Shown here: piece by piece, positions 3,084 through 31,381 of the stretch
Layout of the letters: each line of letters begins with the position of its first letter
Position numbering within the stretch: the stretch's first letter is position 1
Assembly (NCBI RefSeq): GCF_019464535.1
Contig: NZ_CP080507.1
Location: 2,610,001 to 2,642,000, forward strand
DNA from: Horticoccus luteus
GTDB lineage: Bacteria > Verrucomicrobiota > Verrucomicrobiia > Opitutales > Opitutaceae
DNA length: 32,000 bases
Reading direction: 5' to 3'
The notes under the pieces: model-generated
What the model was told of the DNA's origin: nothing
What the model saw: only the letters and a program-made list of their open reading frames with translations
Database searches by the model: none
Translations under genes and position numbers: made by a program

Positions 3084-3118
3084 AAAAAAGCGGAGAAGCG
3101 AAACAAGTCGCTCTCCGC
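3084..3118 (-). terminator. rho-independent terminator of the PEP-CTERM gene
   Basis: On the minus strand, 24 nt after the stop at 3142: GCGGAGAGCGA-cttgtt-TCGCTTCTCCGC (one bulge) followed directly by TTTTTT (plus-strand A-run 3084-3089). Confidence 0.7.
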
Positions 3119-3141
3119 TTCGGTTGGACATCCTACCGGAG

Positions 3142-4059
3142 TCAAGCAGTTCGGGCCTTGGCCCATCGGCGATATCCGGCAAGAGCCAATACAATCAGGC
3201 CAAATCCCATAGCGTAACTGGCGGGCTCTGGCACAGGGGCGAGCGAAGATGTTAGTGAAACATCGAAAAATTTATAGGACCCTGTCTGGGCGGAAGTCGT
3301 TCCGATGGCGATGGTATCAAACCCAGTCACATAGCTAGCACCGGACAAACCAGTCCCAGAGCCGGTCGCGGCAAAAATCGTGGAAGATGTCGTCGTATTC
3401 GACATCGTATAGCTGAAATCCATCTGCGTAGCCGACGTCGCTGTGATGGTGTAGGTAATATTGTAGTTATGCGATGAATCGAGAGTAAAGCTGCCGCTGG
3501 GAATTGTCGGCGACGTGGCCGGCGTGCCTACGGTCGGATAAGTCACAACCGCCGAGCCCGCCGAGAGAGCCCAAGGAGTCGTGGATCCGACAATATTTGT
3601 GTTCGTACCGCTACGATAATCGAACTGCCCGGCCGAAGCGTTGCTAGGGCCGGGGTTGAGCAACAATCCGTAACCCGTATAGTTGGCGAAAGCGCTGTTA
3701 GCGGTTGAGCCCGCGAGATTGCTAGTGACTTGATTATTGGTCGAGCTGGTGCTGTTTGAGTTTTGCAGAGTGAGATAGAAGGTCCGTGAACTGCTAACAG
3801 AAGAGCCGCTCGCCAACGTGAAATTCGCCGACAGCGTGAGGGTTTCACCAAGTGAAATGACATATTGATTGCCCGGTGTTGCAAAATACGTCAGCGCTGC
3901 GTTGGTCGTTGAAGCCGTGGTGACCAGATCACCACCCGCAATGGTAGGTTTGGTACCGAGAAACCAACCGGAAAAATCGGTGGTAGAATATACAGTCGAT
4001 TGTGCCGACAGCATAGAAGTTGAAAGCAAGATCAGACCTACTGTAATAATTTTCTTCAT
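3142..4059 (-). CDS. PEP-CTERM sorting-domain surface protein (Thr/Ser-rich)
   Basis: Track ORF 3142..4176 trimmed to the internal ATG at 4059, because MKKIITVGLILLSTSMLSAQ is a clean signal peptide. The C-terminus VPEPASYAMGFGLIVLALAGYRRWAKARTA is a PEP motif, a TM helix and a basic cluster. The body shares the YF..(x)..LxxGETLT…F.L.L.NS pattern with the recurrent domain of the giant ORF. Confidence 0.85.
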   Translation of the reverse strand: MKKIITVGLILLSTSMLSAQSTVYSTTDFSGWFLGTKPTIAGGDLVTTASTTNAALTYFATPGNQYVISLGETLTLSANFTLASGSSVSSSRTFYLTLQNSNSTSSTNNQVTSNLAGSTANSAFANYTGYGLLLNPGPSNASAGQFDYRSGTNTNIVGSTTPWALSAGSAVVTYPTVGTPATSPTIPSGSFTLDSSHNYNITYTITATSATQMDFSYTMSNTTTSSTIFAATGSGTGLSGASYVTGFDTIAIGTTSAQTGSYKFFDVSLTSSLAPVPEPASYAMGFGLIVLALAGYRRWAKARTA

Positions 4060-4262
4060 GGTGAGGGGGAGTGGCAGAAGCGTCTCAGTCCTTGTTTCTC
4101 GTGTAGACAGCTGCGTGGGGAATAGTTTGTTGATGCCAGTCTCGACGCCATAGCACAAACGAACACCCATTCTCATCGTTGATTACGTTGTATGCGAACG
4201 CGTTACGAAAGTTAAAATTGCAGCGACAGCGGTTGCGCGCGAGACCGATAGGGTTCAAGGAA

Positions 4263-10800: not shown

Positions 10801-13800
10801 CGACGTTGTAGAGTTCGAGGCCAGGTCCGCCGGCAATGCTGACGTTGTTCAACGACACATTACTGATCAGGCCGTTCGCGAGCGGCAGCCCCCAGATGAT
10901 GCTATACCCACTGGCGCCGGTCGCGGTGAGATTGTTGATGGCGATATTTTTCCAAACCGAGACGGTGGCCGCCGCCAGTGGGTTGGGCGGCGTGACATTC
11001 CAAGCTTTGACCTTGGTCGGCGTGGTCTGATTACTCCCGGAAGTCGCTCCGGGATTTCCGACTTGGTTGTAGTAACTATAGAAGACGATGGGATATTGAA
11101 CGTTTGTCATCGTGATATCCGAATACGTCAGATTTTGCACGACGCCGCCCTGGGTGGCATCCGCCTTGAGGCGCAAGCCGCTGGTGGTGCCGTTAAACGT
11201 GCAGCGCAATACCGTGAGGCCGTCGAGGCCGAGATTGGTCTGACCACCGACGGACAAACCGTGGCCGGTGCCAAAGGTGCAATCGGCGACGGTGATGTTA
11301 CTGCACGGTCCGTTGGCGGCTTTGATGGCGATGTTGTCATCGCCGACCGAAATCGTGCAGTTTTGGATCAAGACATTAGTCGCGGTCGGGTCGACGCCGT
11401 CGGTGTTGGGCGACGACGAAGGCGCCGTGACCGTGAGGCCGAAGATGGTGACGTTGGAATTGCTGGTGCCGCCGCTCCCGCTCATCGCGAGGTGAAACTG
11501 CGGCGAGTTTTGCAACGTGATACCGCTCACCAGAACGTTGGCCGCCCGCGTGAACTGCAGCAGGCGGGGGCGGCTGATCGTGCTATCGTTGTTATACGCC
11601 GTCCACCATGCAGCACCGTCACCTTCGATGACGCCATTGCCGGTGATCGCAATATTCGTCGCCCCACTCGCGATACTGATGAGATCGGCGGGCGAAGTCG
11701 TGCTATTGGGATAGGTGCCATACGGCAACGCGCGCAAGATGGCGCCCCCGTCGATCTGCAGATTCATGTTGCTGCGCAGCGTCAGCGGTCCGGTCAGATA
11801 CGGGCTCGCCGCCGCCGGGATTTCGATGGTGCCGCCGCCAGCCGCCTGTGCCGCGTTGATCGCCGCCTGGATGGACGCCGTGTTATTGGTGGTGCCATCG
11901 CCGACCGCGCCATAATCCACGACGTTGAATACGCCTGCGGGGATGATCGGTTGCGTGGGCAACGTCGCCGAGGCCGGCGCGACGGTCGTCAGAACCGCCG
12001 TGGCGCTCGTCGTGGTGCCGCCGCCGTTGGTGACGCCGACGGTATAGTTGCCACCGTCGCTCGAGTCGAGGCCGGTCAACGTAAGGGTCGAGGCGGTCGC
12101 ACCAGCGATGTCGGACCCGCTTTTTTTCCATTGATAGGACAGCGGGCCGACGCCTGTCGCGAAAACACTCAGGCTGACGCGAGAGCCGAGCAAAGCCGAT
12201 TGCGTGAGCGGCTGCACGACGATCGCCGGCGGCGGCGCCGTCACGGTCAACACCGCCGCATCGCTCGTCACCGTGGTCACGCTGTTGGTGACGTCCACGG
12301 TGTAGGAACCGGCGTCGCCATTCTGCAAATTCGCGACGGCGAGCGTGGCCGTCGCCGATCCGGTGATGCGCGCATTATCACTGAGCGCGACGCCGTCCTT
12401 CTTCCATTGATAAGTGATCGGCGTGCTGCCGGTCACCGCGACCGAAAAGCTGGCGCTCGTGCCGGCAGCGAGGGTTGCCGATTGCGGTTGCGCGGTGATC
12501 GTCGGGGCCACCGGAGCCGAACTGACGGTCAGCGTCGCCACCGTACTCGCTACGGAGGCCGCGGCGTTCGTGACAACAAGTTTGTAATCGCCGGAATCCG
12601 CAAGTTGGACGCCGGCGAGAGTCAGCGTGTCGGTCGTGGCGCCGGAGATGATCCCACCGTCGTTCAAATCGACATTGTTTTTCTGCCACCGGTAGCTCAA
12701 TGGGGCGCTGCCTGTCGCCGCCGCGCTCAAAGTCACTGTCGCCCCCACCGTGGCCGATTGTGTGGCGGGCTGCGTGGTGAAGACGGGAGGCGCAGCCAGC
12801 TTTGTGACATGTAAATCGAGAATGCTCGGCGCCGGGCCGTAGGAGGAGTAGAACATCAGCGAATCGAAACTCGCGACGACCGGACCGGAGGTCTGGCTAT
12901 ACGAGTAGGTCATCACCGTCGTGCCACCGCTCTTGACCGTGTAGCTGAGGTCGATCTCCGAAGCCGAAACGTAAGTTATATTGAATGTCGCGGTATAGAC
13001 AGTTGTCGCATCATTCAGGATCGCCCCGGCCGTGCCGCCGCCCGAGCCGAGCAGACCGAATGTCCCGGTGGCCGCCAGATCGGTCGACGTGGGACCGATA
13101 ATCTGGGTGCTGCCGCTCGCGGCGACAGAGGTGCCGGTGCGCGTCCAGAAGGATAACGTATCGGTGGAAGCGGTGGTGGCGGCTTTGGTATCGATAATAT
13201 AACCCGAGTAGCCCCGCGCCGTATTGCCGGTCGGCGTGCCGGTCAGGCTGTTGGACGTGGCGGGAGCGTAGCGCGCGGAAATCGTGGCGGCGGCGTCATT
13301 GGTGGCGGCGCCATTGCCGCCGCTGTTCAAAAGCGCGAGACGGAAGTTGCCAGGATTTTCGGCCGGAGTGGACGCTCCGAAAACGAATGTCACATTGGCC
13401 GAGAGCGTTTCGCCGAGCCCCAACGAAATCGGTGCCGCGGACGGCGCGAAGTAGGCCATCAGGCCGCGCGTGCTCCCCGAGGATGTGCCGAGCGAAGTGC
13501 CGGGCTTGTAAGCGATGTTCGCAGTGCCAAACGACACCCAAGGCGCTTGCGTGGCGGTAGGCGTAAGGAAACCGTTGGCATCGGTCGCGAGACCGGCGTT
13601 TACCGCGGCGGCGGTCACGGCATCGTGGACGACGGTCACGCCGGCGGGTGCGGCGAGCGTGGTCGCGCTCACGGTGTTGGAAGCGGCGGTTGCCAAGCTG
13701 CCGTTAACGGCGCGCACGCGATAGAAGTACGTCGAAGTCGCGGCCAAACCGGTGACCGCGGAAGAGGTGACGTTGCCCACATCCAAATTCTGAAATCCGC

Positions 13801-16800
13801 TGACGAACGCGGTGAACCCGCTGTCCGTCGCCACGTCGAGCTGGTAAGTCGTGGCGCCGCCGACGGCGCTCCAGTTGGCCGTGAAGTGGCTCTCGGTGAC
13901 GAGGGTGGCCGCGCTGGCCGTGGGCGGACTTTGGACCGTTAAGGTCGCGTCGGCGCTGGTGACCGTGCTCGGCGCAGCGTTGGAGACGTCGACCGTGTAA
14001 ACCCCCGCGTCGCCCGCAACGGCGTTGGTGATGGTCAACGTATTGGTCGAAGAGCCGGCGATGTGTCCGGCGCTGTCACTGACGACATTGGTGTCTTTCT
14101 TCCAGACATAGGTGAAAGGTCCAGTGCCGGAAGCGGCCACCGTGAAGGTCACCGTGCCGCCGGCGTTGACGGCCTGGCTGGCTGGCTGCGTAGCGATGGT
14201 GACCGCCACCGCGCCTGCGGTTACGGTCAATGTCGCGGGATCGCTCGTGACCGATCCGGCGGCGTTGGTCACGACCACTTCATAAGCGCTGTTCGAGTCC
14301 GAGAGTTGTACATTGGTCAACACGAGCGAAGCCGAGGTTGCGTTGCCAATTTCGACAAAAGCCCCCGCCCCCACCCGCTTCAGCCATTGATAGCTGAGCG
14401 ACGTGGAACTGGTGGCGGCGACGGTGAAAGTCACATTGCTGCCGATGGTCACGGACTGACTCGCCGGCTGCGTCGTGATCGAGACCGGGGCTGGTGGCGT
14501 GGCGACGTTGATGGTGTTCGACGAGGCGCTGGTTCCATCGGTGTTCACCGCGCGCACACGATAATAGTACGTAGTGTTGTCGCTGAGGCCCGTGATGGCC
14601 TGCGTGAGGACATTGCCGACGTCGCGATTAGCGTAGCCGCTTACAAAACTGCCAAAGAATTCGTCTGTGGAAACATCGAGGCGGTAGCTCGTGGCGCCTG
14701 CGCCCGCGCTCCAGTTTGCCGTAAACCCGGCGGTGCTGGGGCCAGTGGCCGCCGTCGCCACCGGCGCAGCAGGAGGAGAGGTCACCGTCAATGCGACCGA
14801 ATCGCTCGAAGCGGTGCCGCCGGCGTTGGAAACCGCCACAGTGTAGTTGCCGGTGTCGCCGGAGACGGCGTTGCTGATCGTCAACGTGTCGGTGGTCGCG
14901 CCCGCGATATGTCCCGCTTCGTCGACCAGATCGACCCCGCCCTTGGCCCATTTGTAGCCGAGAGGAGCATCGCCGGTTGCGGCGACGGTGTAGGTGACCG
15001 TCGCACCCGCCGCCACGGACTGGCTTCCGGGCGAGGGCTCCGTCGTAATGCTCGGCGCGACGACTGTCGTCGTGTAAGTGACGTCAAAGAGGCGAAAGTC
15101 GATCGTGGTGGCCGTCAAAGCCGCGGAGCTGGGCCGTACATCGAACGTATCGAACGTGAAGGTGCTCGGGCTGGGGTCGCTATATGAAACGCTCGCGCTG
15201 CCGGTATCGTTGAAGGTGCCGCCGGACATCGTCGCCACGATATCGAGCGTATTCGGCGTGCCCGCGATGCGCGTAAAGGTGATGGTAAACGTATAATCGG
15301 TGCCATCGTCGTAGCCGTGGACATTCTTCGGCGCGCCATTGGCGAGGGCAGTCCAGTTCCCGGAAGTCCCGAGCAAGTTGCCCGCCACTCCGGCGCCCAA
15401 CGCCCACTTTCGCAATTGGAACGAATTACTATTCCCGAGCGAGGCGCCCATGTTCATGAACATCGCGTAGCCGGTGTAAGCGGCCGACGGAATGCTGCCA
15501 TCCGCGGTGACGCGCGAGTCCGCCGGCGCTTGGGCCACCGCCAGGTTAAACCCTTGGCTGGAATTGGTGGCGTTCACGCCCGTCGTCCTGAACACCCATT
15601 TGAGCGTCATGCTGTCGCCCGCCTTCGCGAGCGTGACCGGAGTCGCCGCGGGCGTGAAGTAGGTGAAAAGCGTTTGGGACGCGGTGTCCTCGGTGGCGGT
15701 CATCGCACCGGAACTCACAGTGAGAGTGCCCACGCCGCCTTGAAACCACTGTGATTCGAGATCGCCGTCGCTATCGGCATCCGTCCCCTTTACGCCATTG
15801 TTCTCGGCGTAGCCGTCCGTGGCGCTTGGGTCGGTGCGGGTGCCATCCTGCCACGTGTCGTGCACGAGCGCGGTCGTAACCTGGGCGCGCAAGGTGGCGG
15901 CGCTGCCGGCCAACACCAAGACAGCGGCGAAGATGAATAACGTGGAGTGACGCATGAAAGAGAACCTCCGCTCGCGTCGCCGGCTCAGCCAGCGGGCGGC
16001 GGCCGCGACGACCAGCGCGAAGTAGAACCACCAGCCCGGTGCGCCGCCGCCACCGCCGGGCAGGCTCACCGGCGGCGCCGACGTGGCGGTGACGACGAGG
16101 CCGGCGGAATTACTCGTGACGCTCCCCAGCGAGTTGGTGACCACGACGGTGTAATCACCCGCGTTCGCGGCGGAAGCGGCGCTCACCGTATACGTGTCGC
16201 TCGTGGCATTCGGAACCACGTTGCCGTTCAAATACCACTGATACGTGGGCGCCGGACGGCCGGTGGCTTTGACCGTGAACTGAGCGCTGGCTCCGCTCGC
16301 CACGGACAGGCTTTGCGGGTGGGTGACGATGACCGGCCCATGCGGCACACCCGCGGAGCGCACGGTGTTGTTGTCGGTATCGGCTATATACAGATCGCCC
16401 GCCGAATTGACAGCGATGCCGCCTGGTGAGTTGAAGCGTGCCGCCGTGCCAATGCCGTCGACACTGCCGGGTTTGCCGGCCTGCCCGCCGACAGTCGTGA
16501 CGACGCCAAGGGCGGAAACGATTTTGCGCACGGTGTAATTGTCGGTATCGACGACATAGACGTTGAACGCGCTGTCGACCGTGACGCCATAAGGATGATT
16601 GAAACGCGCTCCCGCGCCGGTGCCATCGGCGGCGCCGGTGCTGCCCGCCAAACCGGCGAGCGTGGTCACCGCGCCATCGGGCGTGACGAGGCGGATGGTG
16701 GCATTATCCGTATCGGCGACGTAAACATTGCCGTTGGCGTCGACCGCCACTCCGTAAGGCGCATCGAAGCGTGCCGCGCCGCCCACGCCATCAACGCTGC

Positions 16801-19681
16801 CCGGCTGGCCCGAAAACCCCGCCAGCGTGCTGACGGTCCCGGACGCGAGCACGATTTTGCGCACCGCATGGTTGTTGGTGTCGGCGATAAAGAGATTGGC
16901 GCCGGTCGCGTCGAGCGCGAGGCCCTGTGGCCAGGAGAATCGGGCGGCGGCGTTCGTGCCGTCCGCGCTGCCAGCCTGCCCCGGCGAACCGGCGATCGTC
17001 GTCACGGCACCCGCCGCGGTGACTTTGCGGATGATGTGATTGAGCGTGTCAGCCACATAGACGTTGCCTGCGGCATCGACGGCGATGCCGGATGGCGCGT
17101 CGAAGGTGGCCGCGGTGCCGGCGCCATCGGCGCTACCCGCGACGCCCGCCTTCCCCGCCAGCGTCGTGACCACGCCCGCCGCGGTTATTTTGCGAATAGT
17201 ATGGTTGCCAGTATCGGCCACGTAAGCGGTGCCGCCTCCGTCAACCGCGATGGCCGCGGGGTGATTCAAACGCGCGGCGGCGCCCGTCGCGTCGGTCGTG
17301 CCGACGGATCCCGCGGTGCCAGCGAGCGTGGTGACAGTCAACGGTTCGCCCGCGGATGGGACCGCTTGGACGACGAGCGTGAAAATCTGGGTGCCGTTGG
17401 GCGATTTGTCGTTCTGCGCGGTGACATTGAGTGTGAACGTCGTCGAGCTCAGCCCTGCACCGATGGTGCCCGCCGGGGGCGTGCCGCTCAACACGCCGGT
17501 CTGCGGATTGAGCGTCGCCCAAGCCGGGAGTCCGCTCGCGGTAAACGTCGGCGGCGGGGCGCCCGTCGCGGTAAACGTAAAGGTGCCGGGGACGCCTTCG
17601 GTGAAGGTCGTGCTCGCCCCACTCGTGATCTGCGGCGCCACAGGCGGCTGCACGCGCACCAAGATGGTATTGGAGCTCCCGCTGGTGCCGCTGCTGTTAT
17701 AAGCCCGCACGCGATAATAGTAATTGGTATTGATCGCCAGGCCGCCCACGTCGTCGCTCAAAACCGGTCCGACATCGAGATCTTGGAAGCCCGCGACGAA
17801 GCTGCCAAAGCCGGCATCGGTCGCCACGTCCAGGCGATAGCCCGTCGCGTTGGCCACACTGTCCCAGCGCGCGGTGAACCCGTTTTCGTTGATATTGCGC
17901 GCCAGTTCGGCGACCGGCGCGGCCGGGCGGGGCGCGGCATTAACGGTCACCTGCGCGGCCGAGGATGTCACTTGCGCGGCAAAATTGGCGACAGTCAGCG
18001 TATAGCTGCCGGTTTCATCGAGGCGCACGCTGTTCAATGTCAGCGTCGCTGTTGCGCTGCCGGAGGTGCGGCTGTCATCCGCCAATGCCACACCGTCTTT
18101 ATACCATTGAAAAACAAACGGTGGCGGACCGGACACCGTGGCGGCGAGGACAACGGTCGCGCCTTCAAAGACGGTTTGCCCCGTCGGCTGCGTATCAATT
18201 GCTGGCGGAGTCGCGGGAAAAACACCGAGCGTGGCCGCGGCACTCGTCACGCTCCCATATGAGTTCGTGATCGTCACCGTGAACGTTCCGGCATCCGTGA
18301 GCTGAGCGCCCGTGATCGTAAGCGTCGCGGTCGTCGCGCCGGAATAGACGCCACCGTCGCTGACCGGTGTGCCGTCTTTGCTCCAGACGTAAACGAGTGG
18401 CGGCGCCCCTTGCACGCCGACGGTGAACGACGCTGTCTGGCCTTCGAAAATCGTATGGTCGGGCGGTTGCGTGGTGATGACCGGTGCCGTCAGCACCATC
18501 AGCGTGGCCGCAGCGCTGGTAACGGAACCGGCGCTATTGCTCACGACCACGGTGTAGCTGCCGCTATCGGCCGGCTGGACATTGGTCAAAGCGAGTGTCG
18601 CGTCCGTGGCGGCGTCAATGGCCACACCATCTTTCTTCCATTGATAACTCGGCGTCGGTGCGCCCGTCGCGACTACGGAGAAATTGACCGCAGTGCCGGC
18701 CGGTGCCGTCTGGCTGGCCGGATCGGTGGTGATCGTCGGCGAGATCGAGGTGCGGGAGATAAGAAAATCGGTGACGGCCAGCGACGCATTATAGGTCGAG
18801 AGGATCATGAACGTATCGAAACCCACGAGCGGTGTGTCGGATGTTTCCGTGACCGCGTAGGTCATCACGGTGGTGCTGCCACTCGTGACCGAATACGAAA
18901 GCGCCATTTGCTTGTCGGCGACGCGACGCACGGAGAACTGGGCGACATACGAAGTGCCGTCGTTGGCGATCGCACCGACCGTGCCGCCGCCCGCACCGGG
19001 CAGCAACTGGCTGAAGGCCGAGTTGGTCGCGAGATCGCTGGATGTCGGTCCGAGCCACTGCTGACTGCGGCCCGGCGCCCCATCGCGACGCCAGAACGCG
19101 AGCGAATTGGTCGACGGCGTCGGAGAAGCCGTCGAGTCGACGATATACGCGGAGTAGCCACGCGGGGTGTTGCCGCCGCTCGTCAAACTAAAGTTGTCCG
19201 CAATCACGCGGGCCGCCGGCGGCAGTTCGCCATCAGGGCGGGGATTGGCGCTGGCGCCGTCGTTGACCGCCCGGCCGTTGCCGCCGCTGTTGAGAAACGC
19301 GAGGCGGAAGTCCCCCGTGCTGGACGCGCCGGAACCTCCCGAATAGTTAAACTTCACGGTCGCCGTGAGCGTTTCTCCCACTGCCAGTGATGCGACCGTG
19401 GTCGACGGCGTGAAGTAGGCCATCAATCCACGATTGCCGGCCGACGCGCCGACCGAGGCGTTTTGATTATAGACCAAGGCGGCGCCGCCTGCATACCAAA
19501 CGGCTTGGGTGGCGGTCGGCGCACGGAAACCGTTCGCGTCGACATCGAGGCCGGCATTGGCGGCCGGCGCAGCGAAAGTGTCGTGCAAGATGGGCGTCGT
19601 CACGGTCGCCGCTGAAAGAGCGGTGGCAGCGCCCAGCAAGGGCAACGAAACCAGCGAACGAAAAAAATTGGACATACTCAT
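7838..19681 (-). CDS. giant multidomain surface protein (3947 aa): Ig-like / FN3 / He_PIG-like / NHL beta-propeller / GH28-like beta-helix, with a C-terminal membrane-anchor-type sorting signal; apparently two gene architectures fused in frame
   Basis: A single open frame of 3948 codons. Signal peptide MSMSNFFRSLVSLPLLGAATALSAA. About 14 Ig-like units carry the motif (Y/F)xW(K/Y)K(D/N)G…(D/N)(S/A)G.Y(T)V.V(S/T)N. Four FN3 units follow GFTA.W….GY.LDV(A/S)TD..F…Y(Y/F)YRVRA.N. There are two LP.W.TLN..TGVL(S/A)GTPP units (He_PIG-like). Two sets of six NHL blades read (F/L)N.P.G(I/V)AVD..GN(V/L)YVADT.NH.IRK(I/V). The GH28 motifs are listed separately below. The terminal GGGGGGAPGAWFYLALSLLAAARWLQSRGARR is a Gly run, a TM helix and a basic cluster. 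Confidence 0.9.
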   Translation of the reverse strand: MSMSNFFRSLVSLPLLGAATALSAATVTTPILHDTFAAPAANAGLDVDANGFRAPTATQAVWYAGGAALVYNQNASVGASAGNRGLMAYFTPSTTVASLAVGETLTATVKFNYSGGSGASSTGDFRLAFLNSGGNGRAVNDGASANPRPDGELPPAARVIADNFSLTSGGNTPRGYSAYIVDSTASPTPSTNSLAFWRRDGAPGRSQQWLGPTSSDLATNSAFSQLLPGAGGGTVGAIANDGTSYVAQFSVRRVADKQMALSYSVTSGSTTVMTYAVTETSDTPLVGFDTFMILSTYNASLAVTDFLISRTSISPTITTDPASQTAPAGTAVNFSVVATGAPTPSYQWKKDGVAIDAATDATLALTNVQPADSGSYTVVVSNSAGSVTSAAATLMVLTAPVITTQPPDHTIFEGQTASFTVGVQGAPPLVYVWSKDGTPVSDGGVYSGATTATLTITGAQLTDAGTFTVTITNSYGSVTSAAATLGVFPATPPAIDTQPTGQTVFEGATVVLAATVSGPPPFVFQWYKDGVALADDSRTSGSATATLTLNSVRLDETGSYTLTVANFAAQVTSSAAQVTVNAAPRPAAPVAELARNINENGFTARWDSVANATGYRLDVATDAGFGSFVAGFQDLDVGPVLSDDVGGLAINTNYYYRVRAYNSSGTSGSSNTILVRVQPPVAPQITSGASTTFTEGVPGTFTFTATGAPPPTFTASGLPAWATLNPQTGVLSGTPPAGTIGAGLSSTTFTLNVTAQNDKSPNGTQIFTLVVQAVPSAGEPLTVTTLAGTAGSVGTTDATGAAARLNHPAAIAVDGGGTAYVADTGNHTIRKITAAGVVTTLAGKAGVAGSADGAGTAATFDAPSGIAVDAAGNVYVADTLNHIIRKVTAAGAVTTIAGSPGQAGSADGTNAAARFSWPQGLALDATGANLFIADTNNHAVRKIVLASGTVSTLAGFSGQPGSVDGVGGAARFDAPYGVAVDANGNVYVADTDNATIRLVTPDGAVTTLAGLAGSTGAADGTGAGARFNHPYGVTVDSAFNVYVVDTDNYTVRKIVSALGVVTTVGGQAGKPGSVDGIGTAARFNSPGGIAVNSAGDLYIADTDNNTVRSAGVPHGPVIVTHPQSLSVASGASAQFTVKATGRPAPTYQWYLNGNVVPNATSDTYTVSAASAANAGDYTVVVTNSLGSVTSNSAGLVVTATSAPPVSLPGGGGGAPGWWFYFALVVAAAARWLSRRRERRFSFMRHSTLFIFAAVLVLAGSAATLRAQVTTALVHDTWQDGTRTDPSATDGYAENNGVKGTDADSDGDLESQWFQGGVGTLTVSSGAMTATEDTASQTLFTYFTPAATPVTLAKAGDSMTLKWVFRTTGVNATNSSQGFNLAVAQAPADSRVTADGSIPSAAYTGYAMFMNMGASLGNSNSFQLRKWALGAGVAGNLLGTSGNWTALANGAPKNVHGYDDGTDYTFTITFTRIAGTPNTLDIVATMSGGTFNDTGSASVSYSDPSPSTFTFDTFDVRPSSAALTATTIDFRLFDVTYTTTVVAPSITTEPSPGSQSVAAGATVTYTVAATGDAPLGYKWAKGGVDLVDEAGHIAGATTDTLTISNAVSGDTGNYTVAVSNAGGTASSDSVALTVTSPPAAPVATAATGPSTAGFTANWSAGAGATSYRLDVSTDEFFGSFVSGYANRDVGNVLTQAITGLSDNTTYYYRVRAVNTDGTSASSNTINVATPPAPVSITTQPASQSVTIGSNVTFTVAATSSTSLSYQWLKRVGAGAFVEIGNATSASLVLTNVQLSDSNSAYEVVVTNAAGSVTSDPATLTVTAGAVAVTIATQPASQAVNAGGTVTFTVAASGTGPFTYVWKKDTNVVSDSAGHIAGSSTNTLTITNAVAGDAGVYTVDVSNAAPSTVTSADATLTVQSPPTASAATLVTESHFTANWSAVGGATTYQLDVATDSGFTAFVSGFQNLDVGNVTSSAVTGLAATSTYFYRVRAVNGSLATAASNTVSATTLAAPAGVTVVHDAVTAAAVNAGLATDANGFLTPTATQAPWVSFGTANIAYKPGTSLGTSSGSTRGLMAYFAPSAAPISLGLGETLSANVTFVFGASTPAENPGNFRLALLNSGGNGAATNDAAATISARYAPATSNSLTGTPTGNTARGYSGYIIDTKAATTASTDTLSFWTRTGTSVAASGSTQIIGPTSTDLAATGTFGLLGSGGGTAGAILNDATTVYTATFNITYVSASEIDLSYTVKSGGTTVMTYSYSQTSGPVVASFDSLMFYSSYGPAPSILDLHVTKLAAPPVFTTQPATQSATVGATVTLSAAATGSAPLSYRWQKNNVDLNDGGIISGATTDTLTLAGVQLADSGDYKLVVTNAAASVASTVATLTVSSAPVAPTITAQPQSATLAAGTSASFSVAVTGSTPITYQWKKDGVALSDNARITGSATATLAVANLQNGDAGSYTVDVTNSVTTVTSDAAVLTVTAPPPAIVVQPLTQSALLGSRVSLSVFATGVGPLSYQWKKSGSDIAGATASTLTLTGLDSSDGGNYTVGVTNGGGTTTSATAVLTTVAPASATLPTQPIIPAGVFNVVDYGAVGDGTTNNTASIQAAINAAQAAGGGTIEIPAAASPYLTGPLTLRSNMNLQIDGGAILRALPYGTYPNSTTSPADLISIASGATNIAITGNGVIEGDGAAWWTAYNNDSTISRPRLLQFTRAANVLVSGITLQNSPQFHLAMSGSGGTSNSNVTIFGLTVTAPSSSPNTDGVDPTATNVLIQNCTISVGDDNIAIKAANGPCSNITVADCTFGTGHGLSVGGQTNLGLDGLTVLRCTFNGTTSGLRLKADATQGGVVQNLTYSDITMTNVQYPIVFYSYYNQVGNPGATSGSNQTTPTKVKAWNVTPPNPLAAATVSVWKNIAINNLTATGASGYSIIWGLPLANGLISNVSLNNVSIAGGPGLELYNVADVQYSGTTSFTGLTTANALAITGQPAAQAIAPGQTATFTVVAAGTSGVNGTAPTYQWRREGIALVDGAQSNGSVVSGAQSATLTITGARNGNAGAYTCTVANTLDGYNTASSVLAPDSLPVSSTSKGAQLSVSTSGTLPTINTPPVSQTVATGSTVTLTVEASSATPLSYHWTKDGNALGDGGRVSGTGTATLTLTGVQPADSADYAVVVTNDGGSVTSASATLAVQTPPLITSQSVSQAAFQGDNVTLSVVATGTAPLSYQWKKDGVNLADGGALSGTGTASLTLTGVVVADSGSYTVKVSNAVGAATSTPAVLTVTIPPMAPPAPVAQPATNLASGGFTAHWNAVDNAQGYLLDVSTDSSFATFLNGYNGFDVGTNLSRNIAGLSAGTSYYYRVRAYNDVGPSANSTVIEAATPTLSQAPVITSASSTTFTIGLPASFTITASGAPASTFAAAGLPDWVTLNSATGVLAGTPPNGTVGAIYHLVLTAHNGSGADATQVFTLSVQDVPAPAVPMTITTVAGQVLTAGSADGTGTGATFRDPMAVAVDATGNIYVADTDNHVIRRIAPGGVVTTFAGTAGSPGTANGSGATARFNSPAGITVDSSGNVYVADTLNHTIRRISVSGSVSTLAGLAGTSGSADGTAAARFFGPQGVAFYSDGANSSLYVADTNNHTIRKVNLATTEVTTVAGLAGQPGAVDGTGSAARFNAPSDVAVDRNGNLYVADTENNTIRAVSAGGVVKTIAGLAGSSGAADGTATAARFNHPSALTVDGSFNVFVLDTDNHTIRKIVSVGGVVTTVAGQAGTFGSADGVGAAARFKFPSGIVQAPSGEFYIADTVNQTVRQGVFPNAPIIQTQPQSQSVTAGATVQFFVAATGQPAPTYRWYFNGNQVSSGTSTTLTVTNVQASNAGQYTVVVSNSQGTVTSNAATLTVNNPPSSGGVGGSSDSGGGGGGAPGAWFYLALSLLAAARWLQSRGARRLSSIKNS
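10760..11935 (-). other. GH28-type (polygalacturonase-like) right-handed beta-helix catalytic domain embedded in the giant ORF
   Basis: The N-terminal cap VFNVVDYGAVGDGTTNNTASIQAAINAA is followed by the four GH28 signature segments in the canonical order: NTDGVD, VGDDNIAIK, GTGHGLSVGG and SGLRLKA. Domain borders are approximate. Confidence 0.75.
15881..16057 (-). other. internal junction: complete C-terminal-type sorting signal, then GGAGG + ATG + signal peptide in the same frame with no stop codon
   Basis: …PGGGGGAPGWWFYFALVVAAAARWLSRRRERRFSF | MRHSTLFIFAAVLVLAGSAATLRAQ…. The ATG at 15955-15953 is codon 1243 ((19681-15955)/3 = 1242). GGAGG at 15969-15965 lies 9 nt upstream of that ATG. Confidence 0.7.
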
Positions 19682-24515: not shown

Positions 24516-27182
24516 ATGAGGCAGGCTGTGAGCATGGAAACGAACCAACTCTCCGCCGCAATACCCCAACCCACGAATTCCCACGTTCCTGCGCTGCACC
24601 AGCAGCTCCTCGCCGAACTTAGCTGGCAACACATCCACACAATGCATTTTCCAGTCCGTGACGGCCGCTGGGTTGCTCCAGCAACCCTCCCGCTGACAGA
24701 TCCGGGACTTCGAGTCGCGTCGCAATCGCCCCTAGGCATATACAAGCATCAACAGCTCGCGCTCGCGCACCTGCTCGCGGGACGCAACACGGCAGTCACC
24801 ACGGGAACCGGTTCAGGTAAGTCTCTAGTGTTTCAAACGGCTGCAATCGATCTGATCGCGAAAGACGATTCGTCCCGAATCCTCGTACTTTACCCGTTGC
24901 GGGCGCTCGCCGAGGAGCAGCATGAGCGTTGGAACAAAGCGTTGCGGATCGCCGGCCTCCAGACAGAGGCACTGCTTATCATCGGCGACGGTATTGGCCG
25001 GGCAGAGCGCGCGAAGGCGATTGCCAAGGCTCGGATCGTGATTGCCACTCCTGACATCCTCCACGCTTGGGCGATGCTGAACCGCGAGAAGGAAGCCGGG
25101 GTTCGTCGATTCTTGAAGCACCTGCGCTTGGTCGCGATCGATGAAGCGCACGCATACACCGCCGTATTCGGGACCCAGTCTGCCTTCTTGTTTCGCCGGC
25201 TCGACCATGCCGTGCGTCGACTTGGTGGCTGCTTCCAAATCGCCGCAGCCTCGGCCACGATGGCAGAAGCGGGCAGTCATCTTCGCGCACTGACCGGCCG
25301 CGACTTCACTCTCGTCGGCCCGGAGAGCGACTCTTCGCCGCAGCACCTGAAGCGCCTTCACTTCATCCAACCTGCTGGGGCGTCAGACCTCATTGCCGGA
25401 CTCGGCCGCTGGTTCCGCGCGTGCGCCGACACCGGCGACAGTCGATTCCTCGCGTTTGTGGAAAGTCGAGTGCAGGCTGAGCACTTCGCGCGAGGCGCAG
25501 GACGGCAGAGCATCGACGATGAAAGCAGCGAGGTGAACGAGACCGGACTCGAAGCCGCCGCCGGAGGCGCGGTGCGAGCCTATCGCTCCGGGTTCGACAA
25601 CTCCTATCGCCGCGAGTTGGTGGACCATCTTCGCAGTGGTCGTGTGTCCGGCCTCATCAGCACAAGTGCGCTTGAACTAGGCATGGATCTCCCCGACCTC
25701 GGACTTGGGTTTATCGTCGGCGCGCCTCGCTCGGCCACGGCTTTCTTTCAGCGACTTGGCCGGTTCGGCCGCCATGGCCCAGCAGATATTTTCATCGTTG
25801 CTGACGGATCTGCGGCCTCCGCCGAATTGATGAGAAATCCGGAGCTAGTGCGCACACTGCCTCTGCAACGCAGCACCCTCTATCTCGACAACCCGCGCGT
25901 CCAATACATCCACGTTCTTTGTCAGGCGCACGAGGAACGTTGGAGTGAGCTGGATAATCCGCCGAGCGAGTTCAGCTCTCAAGTGGATTTTCCCGCCGGC
26001 TTTCTCGAACTCTGCGGAAAAGAGCTTCGCGGCGAATCGGTCGGCGATCTGCGTGCCATGCGACCGGCCGGCGACGAAGCCCCTCATCACGTCTTTCCAC
26101 TACGCGACTGTGATCTCCAGTTCACGGTAAAGTGCGGCCGCGGACATTTTGTCATGAAACTCGGCACGATGACATTCGCTCAAGTCCTGCGTGAAGCCTA
26201 CCCCGGCGCAGTTTATTGGCATGCAGGTCGTGCGTATCGTGTGCGGAGCGTCCAAGTAAATCGGCGCATGGTGCTGGTGGACGAGAGCCGGCAATGCTTC
26301 ACCAAACCGCGTGCTTTGTCCCCGGTGATTCAGCCGGATTTGGCCCCCGAAGCGGTGCTTGTCTGGCGGCAGCACGGTGACCTGTCGGTCGTAGAGACCG
26401 GTCTTCAGGCGCGTGAATCCGTGAGTGGCTTCCATGAACGCCGTGGGAGCGCCGAACGTGATGTTCAGTATCCGCTCCAGGAGAACGAGCCGAGTGGCGT
26501 CGTTTACGCCAATGAACGTTTTTGCCGGCATATCGAATCAACGGGCGTGCTGTTGAGCCATCCGGAGCTTTCCAATGCTGCGGTTCGGATCAGTGAAATC
26601 GCCAGCGCCCTGGAGGACTCCTTCCTGCGCGTGGTGCCGATCGAGCGGCAGGATCTGGCTGCCGGCACTGGTCGGCTCCGGGTTTCACGGCGTGGGCTGC
26701 AGCGCGGCGACCGGTTCGTCGCGCTTTACGACCGGGTCTACGGCAGCCTTCGACTCTCCAGTCATCTGTCGAGCCCGGATGTCCTCAAGGACGTCCTATC
26801 CCGCGCGGTAACCGCGGCGCAGAACTCCGCAAGTATGGACGCCATCACGCTCCAAGCACTCCGTGCGCTAGCGCACTCCGCTCAGGAGTTGGGACGCCAA
26901 GTAGCTGAGCTCGATACACCGACTGACACCACCAACCCAGCCTCCGTCAACCTCGTCCAGGTGATCCGCCCCGGCACCTGTGGAGTTCACCGCTCAAGCG
27001 GAGCCACCTTTCAGGTCGAAGGCGCCTTTTACTCGCCCGGTGGCATTCGCTACCGTGGTCGTTTCGACCACCAGCGGCCAGACGATCTCTCGGGGCACAT
27101 CCCCGCATCCGAGATCCGTGAACTGCCGGGTGAGACAGAATTTGCCCAGTTCGACATCACCGCGGGCGCAATTCTGTCCTGA
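24516..27182 (+). CDS. DEAH-box superfamily-2 helicase of the COG1205 / MrfA-YprA-Hrq1 type with a degenerate DUF1998-like C-terminal region
   Basis: 888 aa. The family-typical lead-in is LGIYKHQQLALAHLLAGRNTAVTTGTGSGKSLVF (motif I). LVAIDEAHAY is motif II (DEAH, 25140-25151), AASATM is motif III and QRLGRFGRHG is motif VI. Then come FPLRDCD… and …REAYPGAVYWHAGRAYRVRSV…, and finally …FVALYDRVYGSLRLS…, which are collinear with MrfA/YprA post-helicase domains. An alternative ATG at 24534 is possible. Confidence 0.9.
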   Translation: MRQAVSMETNQLSAAIPQPTNSHVPALHQQLLAELSWQHIHTMHFPVRDGRWVAPATLPLTDPGLRVASQSPLGIYKHQQLALAHLLAGRNTAVTTGTGSGKSLVFQTAAIDLIAKDDSSRILVLYPLRALAEEQHERWNKALRIAGLQTEALLIIGDGIGRAERAKAIAKARIVIATPDILHAWAMLNREKEAGVRRFLKHLRLVAIDEAHAYTAVFGTQSAFLFRRLDHAVRRLGGCFQIAAASATMAEAGSHLRALTGRDFTLVGPESDSSPQHLKRLHFIQPAGASDLIAGLGRWFRACADTGDSRFLAFVESRVQAEHFARGAGRQSIDDESSEVNETGLEAAAGGAVRAYRSGFDNSYRRELVDHLRSGRVSGLISTSALELGMDLPDLGLGFIVGAPRSATAFFQRLGRFGRHGPADIFIVADGSAASAELMRNPELVRTLPLQRSTLYLDNPRVQYIHVLCQAHEERWSELDNPPSEFSSQVDFPAGFLELCGKELRGESVGDLRAMRPAGDEAPHHVFPLRDCDLQFTVKCGRGHFVMKLGTMTFAQVLREAYPGAVYWHAGRAYRVRSVQVNRRMVLVDESRQCFTKPRALSPVIQPDLAPEAVLVWRQHGDLSVVETGLQARESVSGFHERRGSAERDVQYPLQENEPSGVVYANERFCRHIESTGVLLSHPELSNAAVRISEIASALEDSFLRVVPIERQDLAAGTGRLRVSRRGLQRGDRFVALYDRVYGSLRLSSHLSSPDVLKDVLSRAVTAAQNSASMDAITLQALRALAHSAQELGRQVAELDTPTDTTNPASVNLVQVIRPGTCGVHRSSGATFQVEGAFYSPGGIRYRGRFDHQRPDDLSGHIPASEIRELPGETEFAQFDITAGAILS

Positions 27183-28055: not shown

Positions 28056-28718
28056 ATGATGCTTGGCGATGCTCCGCAAAGCTTGAAGGGTTCAGGCCAT
28101 CTATCGCTGCTCGCAGATAAACAGCCTTTGACCGGTCGCTTTGTGCGGGGTCAAAGTCACGCCGAGATTCAGATCGATCCTCCGGCTGATTTGTCGATCG
28201 CGCTTCAAGAGCGCCGAGTGGAGTTCTTGATTTATCGGGCTTACATGGAGGAACTGCCAAAGTGGTTGAACTCGCGGTGCGGTCAGATAATCTCAATCGG
28301 AGCTGACGACGTCGGGCTACTCGTGAAAGCGAATGTCACCCGCCAACAGCTCGATGCCGAACTCAAACCGAATCCGCCAGCTGCGGGCGGTGAGCGGGAG
28401 GACGGGGTTCCAACCAACGGCGTCAGCAATCCCGAGGTGAATGGGGCGGTCGACATCGTGTCGAACGCGGCGCAAACGCCATCCCTGCGTCGCTACCACG
28501 GCACCGTTGAGCTGGACACCATGCGCGTAGGCCGCGATGCGAGCCGGGGCGCCGACGAGGTAATCGCTCACTTGGCCGCTCAGCTCGGATCGGAAGTAAC
28601 TGTGCGACTAGAAATCGACGCACACCTGCCCAGGGGCGCGAGTGACCAGCTGGTCCGAATCGTCACCGAGAATGGCCGAACCTTGAAGTTCGAGAGTCAC
28701 GGCTTTGAGAAGGAGTAG
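28056..28718 (+). CDS. hypothetical protein; possibly a surviving C-terminal fragment of a larger gene
   Basis: 220-aa ORF. The last ~80 aa (RRYHGTVELDTMRVGRDASRGADEVIAHLAAQLGSEVTVRLEIDAHLPRGASDQLVRIVTENGRTLKFESHGFEKE) form a well-structured module. I believe it resembles the extreme C-terminus of large DUF499-type defence ATPases, but this is unverified memory. The N-terminal half and the 290 bp upstream look degraded. Confidence 0.45.
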   Translation: MMLGDAPQSLKGSGHLSLLADKQPLTGRFVRGQSHAEIQIDPPADLSIALQERRVEFLIYRAYMEELPKWLNSRCGQIISIGADDVGLLVKANVTRQQLDAELKPNPPAAGGEREDGVPTNGVSNPEVNGAVDIVSNAAQTPSLRRYHGTVELDTMRVGRDASRGADEVIAHLAAQLGSEVTVRLEIDAHLPRGASDQLVRIVTENGRTLKFESHGFEKE

Positions 28719-28785: not shown

Positions 28786-30132
28786 CTATCGGGGCACGGA
28801 AAGAGCAGCTGGCAAATTGATACGTTTGGGAAGCGCAAACATCTCTCCCGTTTCGGGAATGACGTAGCGCAGCACTGATTCCTGACATCTCTCCAGCAGG
28901 CCTTCCCGCGGTGCCCCGGTGAGCTCGCTGTCCCGACGCACAATCCAAGGCTTCCATTGGGAAAGATCAAGCGAGCCATCCATCTCGGGAATCCTACTCC
29001 AATCCGCCAGCTGCAACCCGACGTAGCAGTTCGTTTCGAGTTCACCCAACGATATACTTTTCCTCCCGTGAGCGAGGTTGTTTCGCTCGTGACGGACAGA
29101 TCTGAGGGCGTGGGCGCAATCCTCACGCGAAATAACCCCCGCGAAGAAGCGGGCGCCCCAAATCGTCGGATCCAGATCTGCCGAGGCGGCCTTTCTCGCC
29201 TGCTCATGAACCAGACCGAACGTGGCGGGTTCCCCCTCCGGCAGCACTTCCTCGGGATCAGAGATCTTCGCTGCCCGACTTAGGCCGTAGCACATGATTT
29301 CGAGTGCCACCTCCGCATACCGGCAGAGCTGCCATTTGGCCCAATCCTCCGGATGCCGCCGCTGCAAGACCGCACCGAACCGATCCAACGGCGCCACCTT
29401 CGTGCTGGGTAGCACTAGGCTGACGGTGCGACATCGATCGCCCAGCGTGAAAGCGATGAACTGCTGGATCACCTCCCGCATCTGCGCCTCGTCGCGAATC
29501 ACCAGCCAAACCTGCAATTCCGCTCCCTCTGCGAGTGTCAGATCGTATTGATCTAGCGTATCCAAAAACTGCTGGAGCAGCAAATGGACGCTCAGGCCGA
29601 AGGCGCCGCATCCGAGCAGAGGGAAAGCAAGCGATGCAACCTGGCGCGCCTGGGCCAAACGTAGGGTCTCAGCGACACAGGCTCGGATCGCTTGGAAATA
29701 ATCCGCTTCGTCGGAACAACCGGGCCGGCCGGGCCAGTCCGCGGGATCGTGAAAGCCCGCGTGAAAGATGTATTTGAAATCGTCCCCTCCGCCGGTGACG
29801 AGAACAGTTCCGGGCCGCTGCACCTCACCTCGGGTGATCTGATCAAGCTCCGCTTGCACGTTCTCGCCGTAACGCATTCGGATCTGGCCACTGAGGGAGT
29901 TGGGATTACGGGCCAGGCGGAACCCCGTCTCCTCGCTGTTCACGATTGCCTCCACCGGCGCCTCCAGGACATCGGCATGCGCGATGGTGAAGCCAAGCCG
30001 CCGCAGCTTTCCTTCGTAGATGATGTTCACGGAGCTGGAAGACAGACGAACGTTCGTCGGCGAGAATGCTGGAGGCAGCGGCCTCGCGGCGAATCTTTTC
30101 GATGACGAAACGCCAGCATGGCCCCTGATCAT
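28786..30132 (-). CDS. Macro domain - HEPN domain fusion protein
   Basis: Macro domain: FTIAHADVLEAPVEAIVNSEE…PGTVLVTGGGDDFKYIFHAGFHDP…VASLAFPLLGCGAFGL. This is collinear with the canonical (DAIVNAAN … G.a.iT.gg.L....iH.vGP … SiAfP.i.tG.yG.) pattern. HEPN domain: helical C-half with ALRSVRHERNNLAHGR, an R-x4-H motif with Asn after the Arg (RNNLAH at 29068-29085). The first 34 codons are Ser/Arg/Pro-rich, so the real start may be the GTG at 30030 (VNIIYEGKL…). Confidence 0.8.
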   Translation of the reverse strand: MIRGHAGVSSSKRFAARPLPPAFSPTNVRLSSSSVNIIYEGKLRRLGFTIAHADVLEAPVEAIVNSEETGFRLARNPNSLSGQIRMRYGENVQAELDQITRGEVQRPGTVLVTGGGDDFKYIFHAGFHDPADWPGRPGCSDEADYFQAIRACVAETLRLAQARQVASLAFPLLGCGAFGLSVHLLLQQFLDTLDQYDLTLAEGAELQVWLVIRDEAQMREVIQQFIAFTLGDRCRTVSLVLPSTKVAPLDRFGAVLQRRHPEDWAKWQLCRYAEVALEIMCYGLSRAAKISDPEEVLPEGEPATFGLVHEQARKAASADLDPTIWGARFFAGVISREDCAHALRSVRHERNNLAHGRKSISLGELETNCYVGLQLADWSRIPEMDGSLDLSQWKPWIVRRDSELTGAPREGLLERCQESVLRYVIPETGEMFALPKRINLPAALSVPR

Positions 30133-30352: not shown

Positions 30353-31381
30353 GTGACGAGTTTTAGCTCAAACACACGATGCCGCTCCTGCGCTATATTG
30401 AGACTGCGCTCGACTTCGGCCGAGTGCGCGCGAGAATTTCGTCACTCGCCTGTGACCCGGAAGGAGTTCAACGATAAATGTATCGAGGATCTGATCGCCG
30501 CGGAGTTTCCGCAGCGGGTCGCGGTGATCGGCTCGGGTCCGTCGACGCCTTACGTTCCTTCTATGGGAGCGTTGAAGGACGCGCTGGCCAAGGCGTGCAA
30601 CGTGCAGGGGATCGCTGACGAGTATCCTTGGAATTTCTGCGAACGAGCGTTTGTTGCGAACCCGGAAGCCTACTTCTCGGCAATCGGGACTTCGTTCGAT
30701 GCGGAGGCCCCTCTCTGGGACCCCCGCGCTTACAGGCACCTCGTGCAGATCCCGTTCAAGAGTTATGTCACGTTCAACTATGATCGGTTACTCCCGCGCG
30801 CGTTCTTCGAAAGATACCCCGACTCCAGCCACCTGTTCACAGTCTACCCGAGCCGGCATGGTGATGGCCTGACAACTCAACCCTGCGACTTGGAACACAG
30901 GAGGCGACTGGTCGCGGTGCACGGCTACGCGGATCCCGCAAACCCGAACTGGTCACGTCAGATCATCCTGAAAAGGTCGGATTATAATCATTACTACGCG
31001 GACCCGAAAACGGGCCATCATCTTTTCAACTGGTGGAAGAACCTGCTCACCCATCTGCCCTGCGTATTCATTGGAATGTCTCTGCATGAACCCGGCCTCT
31101 TCCGTGTGGTGGAGCAACTGAGAAAGGACGACCACCCCAAGCTGACTGGGCTCAAACACATTCATCTCGTTAACGTGGAGTGGGCGGAGGACGACCCTGA
31201 TGAGCAAGCTTTGGGCTCGACGTTCGGTGTCTTCCAGAAGATTGCCTACGATCAGGTCGACCATCGGCACAGTGGGCTTCTTCAGGTGCTGGACGCGTTC
31301 TCGCACCTCGGTATCAAGGATCCGAGCCCAAGCCTTCCGCAGATTCCTCCGATCACCGCGACTGAGACCTTTCCTTTCTAA
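30353..31381 (+). CDS. SIR2-like protein (SIR2_2 / defence-associated sirtuin type)
   Basis: VAVIGSGPSTPYVPSMGALKDAL matches the GAG.S…P.w..L segment. IPFKSYVTFNYDRLLPRAF is the TTNYD-type motif (NYD at 30775-30783). LVAVHGYADP…IILKRSDYNHYY holds the catalytic HG (His codon 30920-30922) plus the s..DY segment. LPCVFIGMSLHEPGLFRVVEQL matches the lFiGySl.D segment. There is no in-frame ATG before the domain, so the start is the GTG at 30353 or the GTG at 30452. Confidence 0.8.
   Translation: MTSFSSNTRCRSCAILRLRSTSAECAREFRHSPVTRKEFNDKCIEDLIAAEFPQRVAVIGSGPSTPYVPSMGALKDALAKACNVQGIADEYPWNFCERAFVANPEAYFSAIGTSFDAEAPLWDPRAYRHLVQIPFKSYVTFNYDRLLPRAFFERYPDSSHLFTVYPSRHGDGLTTQPCDLEHRRRLVAVHGYADPANPNWSRQIILKRSDYNHYYADPKTGHHLFNWWKNLLTHLPCVFIGMSLHEPGLFRVVEQLRKDDHPKLTGLKHIHLVNVEWAEDDPDEQALGSTFGVFQKIAYDQVDHRHSGLLQVLDAFSHLGIKDPSPSLPQIPPITATETFPF

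Follow-up and report, generated by a model that had tools for sequence, protein, structure and literature searches.

A 32,000-nucleotide stretch of the Horticoccus luteus genome (Verrucomicrobiota, Opitutaceae; contig NZ_CP080507.1, positions 2,610,001 to 2,642,000), hereafter the window, carries on its minus strand a gene whose product consists of three domains: a macro domain, a helical HEPN-like domain and a small β domain. By analogy with RNases that are gated by nucleotide ligands, we propose that this macro-HEPN protein is an abortive-infection RNase controlled by an ADP-ribose ligand, with sensor and effector combined in one polypeptide, and we give this reading a probability of roughly one half (0.52). 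The observations that carry the proposal are the identities of the domains, their conservation, their obligate coupling and the genomic contexts in which members of the family are found.

Domain architecture and conservation

The original prediction, which was made from the letters of the sequence, placed the gene in a minus-strand open reading frame (ORF) at 28786..30132, 448 amino acids long when counted from its ATG. The strings on which that prediction relied (AIVNSEE, NPNSLSGQIR, VTGGGDDFKYIFHAG, SLAFPLLGCGAFGL and LRSVRHERNNLAHGR) all lie within this ORF, and its product is 100% identical to the 414-residue 'macro domain-containing protein' of H. luteus, WP_220160918.1 (P0001 in our set). 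The ORF therefore stands as predicted, but its start does not. The NCBI protein and all ~80 homologues found begin at the sequence MNIIxxG, which maps to a GTG at 30030, and for this reason the 34 codons upstream of it are unlikely to be translated. Judged from these comparisons, the true start is probably GTG 30030 rather than 30132, giving a protein of 414 amino acids; all residue numbers below refer to this form.

The presence of a macro domain in the N-terminal half was confirmed by sequence and by predicted structure. Pfam PF01661 (Macro) matches the window protein with 43.3 bits against a cut-off of 22 (E 4.1e-11). When a profile of the family was compared with solved structures, PARP14 macrodomain 2 (MD2) ranked top (E 4.6e-19, ~22% identity), followed by PARP14 MD3, PARP9 and PARP15 MD2, macroH2A1.1, AF1521 and TTHA0132. 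An AlphaFold (AF2) model of the full protein, built from 51 sequences with a predicted local distance difference test (pLDDT) score of 90.9, adopts the three-layer α/β/α macro fold. Foldseek matched this model to macro structures only, with an E of 1e-9 and template modelling (TM) scores of 0.77-0.87 to macroH2A, AF1521, PARP14 and TTHA0132.

From its sequence, the domain has the residues expected of an ADP-ribose pocket, namely an adenine-contact Asp and a Gly-containing phosphate loop 2. The putative adenine contact, D20, is kept in 89 of 96 full-length relatives, and the putative loop 2 (A-F-P-L-x-G-x-G; AFPLLGCGAFG in the window protein) is close to invariant, with P137 present in 96/96 and G140 and G142 each in 95/96. 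Both D20 and the loop-2 residues align with the equivalent positions of PARP14 and TTHA0132. Two hallmarks of MacroD-type enzymes, the catalytic Asn of the NAAN motif and the GGG(V/D) first loop, are absent across the family alignment. In place of NAAN the family has N/S-S-E-Q (NSEE/NSEQ), which puts a Gln at the position of the MacroD catalytic Asn, and in place of the GGG(V/D) loop it has S-I/L-S-G-Q-I (SLSGQI in the window protein). A further macro landmark of the window protein is FHAGFHDP. The NCBIfam hydrolase equivalogs score only 13-26 bits, against cut-offs of 200-291.

PARP14 MD2 shares with the family the first loop VNS..D.VLS..P.S and the second loop FP.(I/L)G.G. It lacked hydrolase activity whether the substrate was protein, peptide, RNA or DNA, and has been described as a reader (PMC10499325). 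Since this closest solved relative combines the same loop type with a lack of hydrolase activity, the comparison supports the earlier suggestion that the non-canonical first loop favours binding over hydrolysis, and the macro domain appears reader-like. Invariant SEQ(T)DF and HAGFH.P motifs set the bacterial family apart from PARP14 MD2, and PARP14, PARP9 and PARP15 differ from the family in their eukaryotic multi-domain transferase context.

The assignment of the C-terminal half to HEPN began from an R-x4-H string. Such a string alone is not significant, because ~0.8 are expected by chance in the window protein and two are present, at residues 302 and 316. Only the second is conserved: at 316-321, R is found in 95/96 relatives and N, A and H in 96/96, and no other element of the protein is as well conserved among full-length relatives of 21-51% identity. 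Conservation in the helical domain extends to D216, E240, F271-G272, W291 and R316-N317-x-x-A320-H321-G322. A separate AlphaFold model of residues 200-414 (59 sequences, pLDDT 95.3) revealed that the motif, R117-H122 in the numbering of the C-half, ends a helix spanning 104-121 and is followed by a loop and a kinked pair of helices, 129-140 and 142-152. In the published description of the superfamily, HEPN domains carry R-x4-6-H with a polar N, D or H after the R, the motif spans the junction between core helix 3 and the loop that leads to helix 4, helix 4 is often kinked, and a conserved acidic residue lies upstream (PMC3710099). The modelled placement of the motif, its polar residue and the kinked helix fit this description; candidates for the upstream acidic residue are E240 (93/96) and D216 (92/96).

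Profile searches hint at the same at the level of the family. Scanning of 96 members with Pfam returned recurring HEPN matches, all of them below threshold: HEPN_RiboL-PSP in 28/96 (best E 8e-4), HEPN_MAE_28990 in 10/96, HEPN_Swt1 in 5/96, and HepT, DUF4145 and NTase_sub_bind in 1/96 each. The only recurring families outside HEPN were Macro/ThsA_Macro and DUF5444 (2 members). This HEPN signal emerges only from the scan of many members; the C-half of the window protein itself matched no Pfam family even at E 10. Taken together with the motif, we regard the helical domain as probably a member of the HEPN superfamily, in agreement with the original prediction. A profile of the C-half had a sole match among PDB sequences, MRPL18, which we judged spurious.

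The predicted two-domain architecture holds for the macro and HEPN-like parts, but it missed the third, β-rich domain at the C-terminus. This domain gave weak Foldseek matches to integrase C-terminal SH3 domains and to Tudor domains, and its conserved positions are P361-W362, G377, Y389, P392 and G395.

A search with a profile of the C-half only found 116 clusters at E <= 1e-3 among 1.84 billion representative proteins. The full-length matches are ~400 residues long with the C-half at ~205-400, and all full-length members scanned carry a macro domain, which Pfam Macro matches in 95/96. The coupling of macro and HEPN is thus obligate. With the patterns used, a scan of 185,579 species genomes returned one full-length relative, from an alphaproteobacterial metagenome-assembled genome (L008), and three macro-only matches; a scan of viral contigs found no family member. 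The family comes mostly from metagenomes and is nearly absent from isolate genomes, and its rarity and almost entirely metagenomic origin account for its absence from defence-system catalogues. A frameshift or sequencing error breaks the L008 relative (10001-11228, +) into two overlapping ORFs; an N6 DNA methylase gene is its divergent neighbour, and a Schlafen/AlbA_2 protein is encoded close by. Variants of the architecture were also observed. P0180 and P0183 (570-590 amino acids) have an extra N-terminal region of ~190 residues and RNDVAHR instead of RNxLAHG, and both keep the macro domain. Of P0077 (647 amino acids) and P0101 (618 amino acids), one has ~200 extra C-terminal residues and the other appears to be a chimera in which the C-half is joined to a helicase-nuclease fragment.

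Genomic contexts of the family

Contexts were compared for about 30 non-redundant loci, and the neighbours were tallied over 129 ORFs within 4 kb. The commonest neighbour families were N6_Mtase, Methylase_S and HsdM_N (4 each), SWI2_SNF2/ResIII (3) and HSDR_N (2); ADP_ribosyl_GH and SIR2_2 (2 each) came next. No cas genes were found in the 30 loci. As a whole, these contexts point to defence.

In several loci the macro-HEPN gene is embedded in a type I restriction-modification (R-M) operon. The gene order is hsdM-hsdS-macroHEPN-hsdR in L016 and hsdS-GmrSD/Schlafen-macroHEPN-hsdR in L015; in L020 the gene likewise lies between hsdS and hsdR, and L018 and L030 contain decayed forms of the arrangement. 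Between L015 and L016, identity reaches 85% for HsdR but only 52% for the macro-HEPN alleles embedded in the operons. The embedded cases belong to two related lineages only. The slot between hsdS and hsdR is the position of prrC, and PrrC is itself a HEPN RNase embedded in hsdMSR, one of many HEPN families that sit in R-M operons (PMC3710099). This placement suggests a PrrC-like back-up role. The L020 gene (6687-9884, +) is one ORF of 1065 amino acids in which macro-HEPN residues 1-362 are in frame with an HsdR without its N-terminal nuclease domain, either a deletion fusion or an assembly artefact.

A second recurring association is with enzymes of ADP-ribose turnover. An ADP-ribosylhydrolase (ARH) gene follows the macro-HEPN gene on the same strand, 100-155 bp downstream, in L004/L005 and in L032. 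Between L004/L005 and L032 identity is only 34-36% for the macro-HEPN proteins and 50% for the ARHs, which means that the pairing has persisted over deep divergence. In addition, an ARH fragment lies near P0025, a bacterial-type PARG gene follows P0032, and rhodanese-type dual-specificity phosphatases are found near L007, P0032 and P0025. That ARH or PARG genes recur beside the macro-HEPN gene suggests that a means of clearing the signal is built in. In L007, the 146-residue rhodanese-type/dual-specificity phosphatase adjoins a ~345-residue protein (4272-5309, −) with the motifs FQVASQFNLLE and FLGGGAFGN, and a ~342-residue protein likewise adjoins the phosphatase beside P0032, which gives this arrangement in two macro-HEPN neighbourhoods. 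Searches of Pfam, NCBIfam and PDB found no match for the L007 protein; the protein of these two loci could be an ADP-ribose-processing enzyme.

Locus L043 contains a distant member of 475 amino acids (245-1672, +; 30% identity, E 3e-29) that carries WVNSEQTNF, AFPLIGTG and RDRNAFAHH. Convergent to it, with ~20 nucleotides between the stop codons, is a gene for a 510-residue TIR_2/ThsB-like protein (1694-3226, −), and both proteins start with a 46-residue GYF_2 domain (52% identity between the two, E 1e-11). From sequence, the pair looks like a Thoeris-type generator and effector tied together by a common adaptor domain.

Mobility is seen in L014, where the macro-HEPN gene follows an integrase and a D5-type primase as the cargo of a mobile element. 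In L041, a 281-residue ORF (4140-4985, −) with the string RIRNPVAHG lies ~2 kb from a frameshifted family member and may, from this motif, encode an additional, unrelated HEPN protein; the locus further includes genes for an HNH protein and a Mutator-family transposase.

The macro-HEPN gene in its window

The features of the window that concern the macro-HEPN gene are listed in Table 1. The setting of the gene is defence-island-like, and a functional link to its neighbours is putative. The divergent SIR2_2 protein keeps TFNYD and VHG, which contain the catalytic N and H. An ORF starting at 31387 (+), 6 nucleotides after the SIR2_2 gene, extends to the end of the window (32000) and has no PDB match; the two genes are probably a separate two-gene NADase defence module. 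The other SIR2_2 match in the tally of loci is not detectably similar to the window SIR2_2 protein by BLAST or phmmer. Equivalence of the window protein to the 342/345-residue proteins beside the phosphatases of P0032 and L007 was considered and rejected (BLAST E 2.4). On the other flank, the convergent 220-residue ORF appears, from its profile match, to be the 3' remnant of a defence gene otherwise lost by deletion, HmaC, which encodes a DUF499-type AAA+ ATPase; this remnant suggests a past rearrangement at the site. The divergent intergenic region showed no sigma-70-like promoter, and the window contains no tRNA genes.

Table 1. Coordinates of the macro-HEPN gene, its domains and its neighbours in the window.
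Feature	Position	Strand	Basis and remarks
Macro-HEPN gene	28786..30030	−	414 codons plus stop (28786-28788); probable GTG start 30030; WP_220160918.1
Upstream ORF extension to ATG, 34 codons, probably untranslated	30031..30132	−	Unconserved in any homologue; absent from NCBI protein
Macro domain, residues 1-197, reader-like	29440..30030	−	Pfam; PARP14 MD2 profile match; Foldseek; AF2; conservation
Helical HEPN-like domain, residues 213-360	28951..29394	−	AF2 C-half model; sub-threshold HEPN Pfam matches; conservation
RNNLAHG, predicted HEPN catalytic motif (R316, N317, H321)	29065..29085	−	Translation; conservation; helix-end position
Small C-terminal β domain, residues 361-403, four strands, SH3/Tudor-like	28822..28950	−	DSSP strands in AF2 models
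SIR2_2 protein, 342 amino acids, divergent from macro-HEPN gene	30353..31381	+	Pfam SIR2_2 E 4e-11; PADLOC ThsA/LmuA-like; ThsA alignment
ORF of 220 amino acids, convergent	28056..28718	+	PADLOC HmaC E 2e-20, profile positions 784-940 of 941; no Pfam match
DEAD/DEAH helicase, 888 amino acids, defence-associated type	24516..27182	+	Pfam DEAD, Helicase_C; PADLOC SngC/BrxH/DpdF-like; TIGR03817-like

Elsewhere in the window, a gene at 7838-19681 (−) encodes a giant protein of 3947 amino acids that combines many Ig/I-set domains with NHL repeats, fn3 and a glycosyl hydrolase 28 domain. The ORF directly downstream of it (4263-7841, −; 1192 amino acids) has a weak TonB-dependent-receptor plug domain, and a LacI regulator and TPR proteins are encoded nearby.

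Proposed mechanism, related systems and alternative readings

From these observations we infer the following scheme. The macro domain would be a receptor, and not primarily a hydrolase, and its ligand would contain ADP-ribose; it might be free ADP-ribose (ADPR), an ADPR derivative made by a TIR protein, or an ADP-ribosyl group attached to a macromolecule in the course of phage attack. Binding would alter the oligomeric state or the conformation of the protein such that two HEPN domains build a composite R-N...H site, and the active, metal-independent RNase would then cut cellular and/or phage RNA and bring growth to a stop. Where an adjacent ARH or PARG is present, it would destroy the ligand and thereby curb the switch or return it to its resting state. 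Members encoded within type I restriction operons would act as a second line of defence in the manner of PrrC. More tentatively, macro-HEPN could be the effector arm of a new ADP-ribose-based branch of immune signalling with ARH and PARG as the equivalents of ring nucleases, an extension that we consider possible without holding it to be probable. The messenger would then come from a TIR protein (as at L043), from NADases elsewhere or next door (such as the SIR2 protein of the window), or from phage ADP-ribosyltransferases.

Csm6/Csx1 and RNase L are ligand-gated HEPN RNases. The macro-HEPN protein resembles Csm6/Csx1 in having an N-terminal sensor of a nucleotide ligand and a C-terminal HEPN domain with R-x4-6-H in one polypeptide, and by analogy ligand-gated, non-specific cleavage of RNA would be expected of it. 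The separate or intrinsic activities that degrade the ligand and switch Csm6/Csx1 off have a possible counterpart in the ARH and PARG genes near some members. The sensor, however, is a macro domain and not CARF, the expected ligand is based on ADP-ribose and not a cyclic oligoadenylate, no CRISPR-Cas genes lie nearby in the loci examined, and the C-terminal SH3/Tudor-like domain is an addition. In the anticodon nucleases PrrC and RloC, too, a C-terminal HEPN RNase is placed under an N-terminal nucleotide-binding domain, and some macro-HEPN genes occupy the prrC slot. The family nevertheless lacks the ABC ATPase, has no sequence similarity to the HEPN of PrrC, and occurs mostly outside R-M operons, the window gene included.

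A parallel for the receptor half of the scheme is type II Thoeris, in which binding of His-ADPR by the ThsA macro domain makes ThsA oligomerise (PMC13434031). By analogy, the macro domain of our family may likewise be a receptor for an ADPR-derived immune signal that drives the oligomerisation of an effector. Weak ThsA_Macro matches occur in 3/96 members (best E 0.015), and a ThsB-like TIR is found at L043 only. The effector is HEPN instead of the transmembrane helices of ThsA, and the closest macro domain is PARP14 MD2 rather than that of ThsA. DarTG also employs a bacterial macro domain in a conflict system, and PADLOC gave a weak DarG match to the window protein (E 0.0014). There is no DarT neighbour, however, the NCBIfam DarG model scores 13 bits against a cut-off of 250, and DarG is a hydrolase without a HEPN domain. 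The ARG-centric systems comprise an ADP-ribosylglycohydrolase (ARG), a rhodanese-type phosphatase, a variable Macro, helicases and nucleases; they are predicted to counter or deconjugate viral ADP-ribosylation, with Macro as an accessory (Iyer et al. 2022, PMC9503650, section 3.8). The loci L004, L032, L007, P0025 and P0032 resemble them, but that account contains no HEPN fused to Macro, and the window lacks the core ARG and phosphatase genes.

The original prediction named no characterised Macro-HEPN protein, and our literature search found no description of the fusion; papers that contain both words do not describe it. A census of HEPN domains from 2013 has Macro only as the operon neighbour of one HEPN family (PMC3710099). 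PADLOC returned nothing for the macro-HEPN protein beyond the DarG match.

Several results weigh against a ligand-gated RNase. Profile and structure comparisons of the C-half were divided, with the all-α model and the placement of the motif in favour of HEPN and the database matches not: none of the Pfam HEPN models reaches its gathering score in any of the 96 members, and a Foldseek search with the C-half model returned nothing at E < 0.1 from either PDB or BFVD, the best HEPN being YutE (1ylm) at rank 22 with E 1.8 and TM 0.38. No partner gene is conserved across the ~30 loci, and many members lie amid housekeeping genes. TIR or GYF partners were found in no examined locus other than L043, a single case, and the window contains no TIR, ARH, PARG or type I R-M genes. 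The H. luteus protein itself departs from the consensus at three near-invariant positions, with L22, E34 and K211 where the family has F22 (89/96), Q34 (87/96) and G211 (88/96); E34 is found only in the H. luteus member. By these substitutions, the protein may be a functionally shifted or relaxed copy.

The pocket of the macro domain raises a further objection, as E33, Q34, D36 and H94 could, from their conservation, serve catalysis rather than pure binding. Such a domain would be an enzyme that removes ADP-ribose from RNA, DNA or protein or that processes ADPR-1''-phosphate or O-acetyl-ADPR, and the protein would be a factor for repair or detoxification, not a suicide RNase. Its HEPN domain would bind or trim an RNA substrate, and it would reverse ADP-ribosylation by phage or toxin transferases. 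The near-invariant polar residues of the pocket, S32, E33, Q34, D36, H90 and H94, could all be catalytic on this account, which would also suit the JGI label of O-acetyl-ADP-ribose deacetylase on relatives, the removal of ADP-ribose from RNA and DNA ends by PARP14 MD1 (PMC10499325), and the recurrent ARH, PARG and rhodanese-type phosphatase neighbours, which are predicted deconjugators of viral ADP-ribosylation (PMC9503650). We nevertheless consider an enzymatic role unlikely: the NAAN Asn and GGG(V/D) loop are missing, the top structural relative is an inactive reader, the hydrolase equivalogs stay far below their cut-offs, and an invariant, complete RNxxAH argues for an active nuclease, for which a pure repair enzyme would have no need.

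If the RNase is active, its gate could still be a protein. A PrrC-like guard would be silenced by contact with a type I enzyme or another neighbour, with the macro domain as a docking or autoinhibitory module, and would be released once a phage anti-restriction factor disables the partner; ADP-ribose signalling would have little or no part in it. The prrC-like slot in L015, L016 and L020, the many HEPN families in R-M operons (PMC3710099) and the place of the window gene beside a helicase and an Hma-type ATPase remnant are compatible with this. Considering that most members, including that of the window, have no R-M neighbour, that the embedded cases are confined to two related lineages, and that the conserved ADP-ribose-binding determinants would be needless in such a guard, we find it rather improbable. 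That the C-half is a non-catalytic HEPN-like domain for binding or dimerisation, in an ADP-ribose-responsive regulator or a housekeeping factor of ADP-ribose metabolism, is in our view very improbable. Some HEPN domains are indeed non-catalytic binders (MtlR and the nucleotidyltransferase-associated ones; PMC3710099), and the lack of a significant structural match to HEPN RNases and the housekeeping surroundings of several loci would agree with one here. However, non-catalytic HEPN domains typically lose Rx4-6H (PMC3710099), while R, N and H are retained here in 95-96 of 96 members, and a housekeeping role fits poorly with a family that is patchily and rarely distributed, is missing from most genomes and occurs in mobile-element and defence-island contexts.

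The gating of HEPN domains and the use of macro domains as receptors are each known singly, and a link between the two is not known. If the ligand-gated reading is true, macro-HEPN would be the first RNase known to be under macro-domain control and a second, non-CRISPR example of nucleotide-gated HEPN immunity, and it would bring RNA degradation into bacterial ADP-ribose immune signalling. As a compact single-gene system of about 410 amino acids, it would be directly testable with defined ligands and may, if the reading is true, provide insight into how cells sense phage-driven ADP-ribosylation or the cleavage of NAD+.

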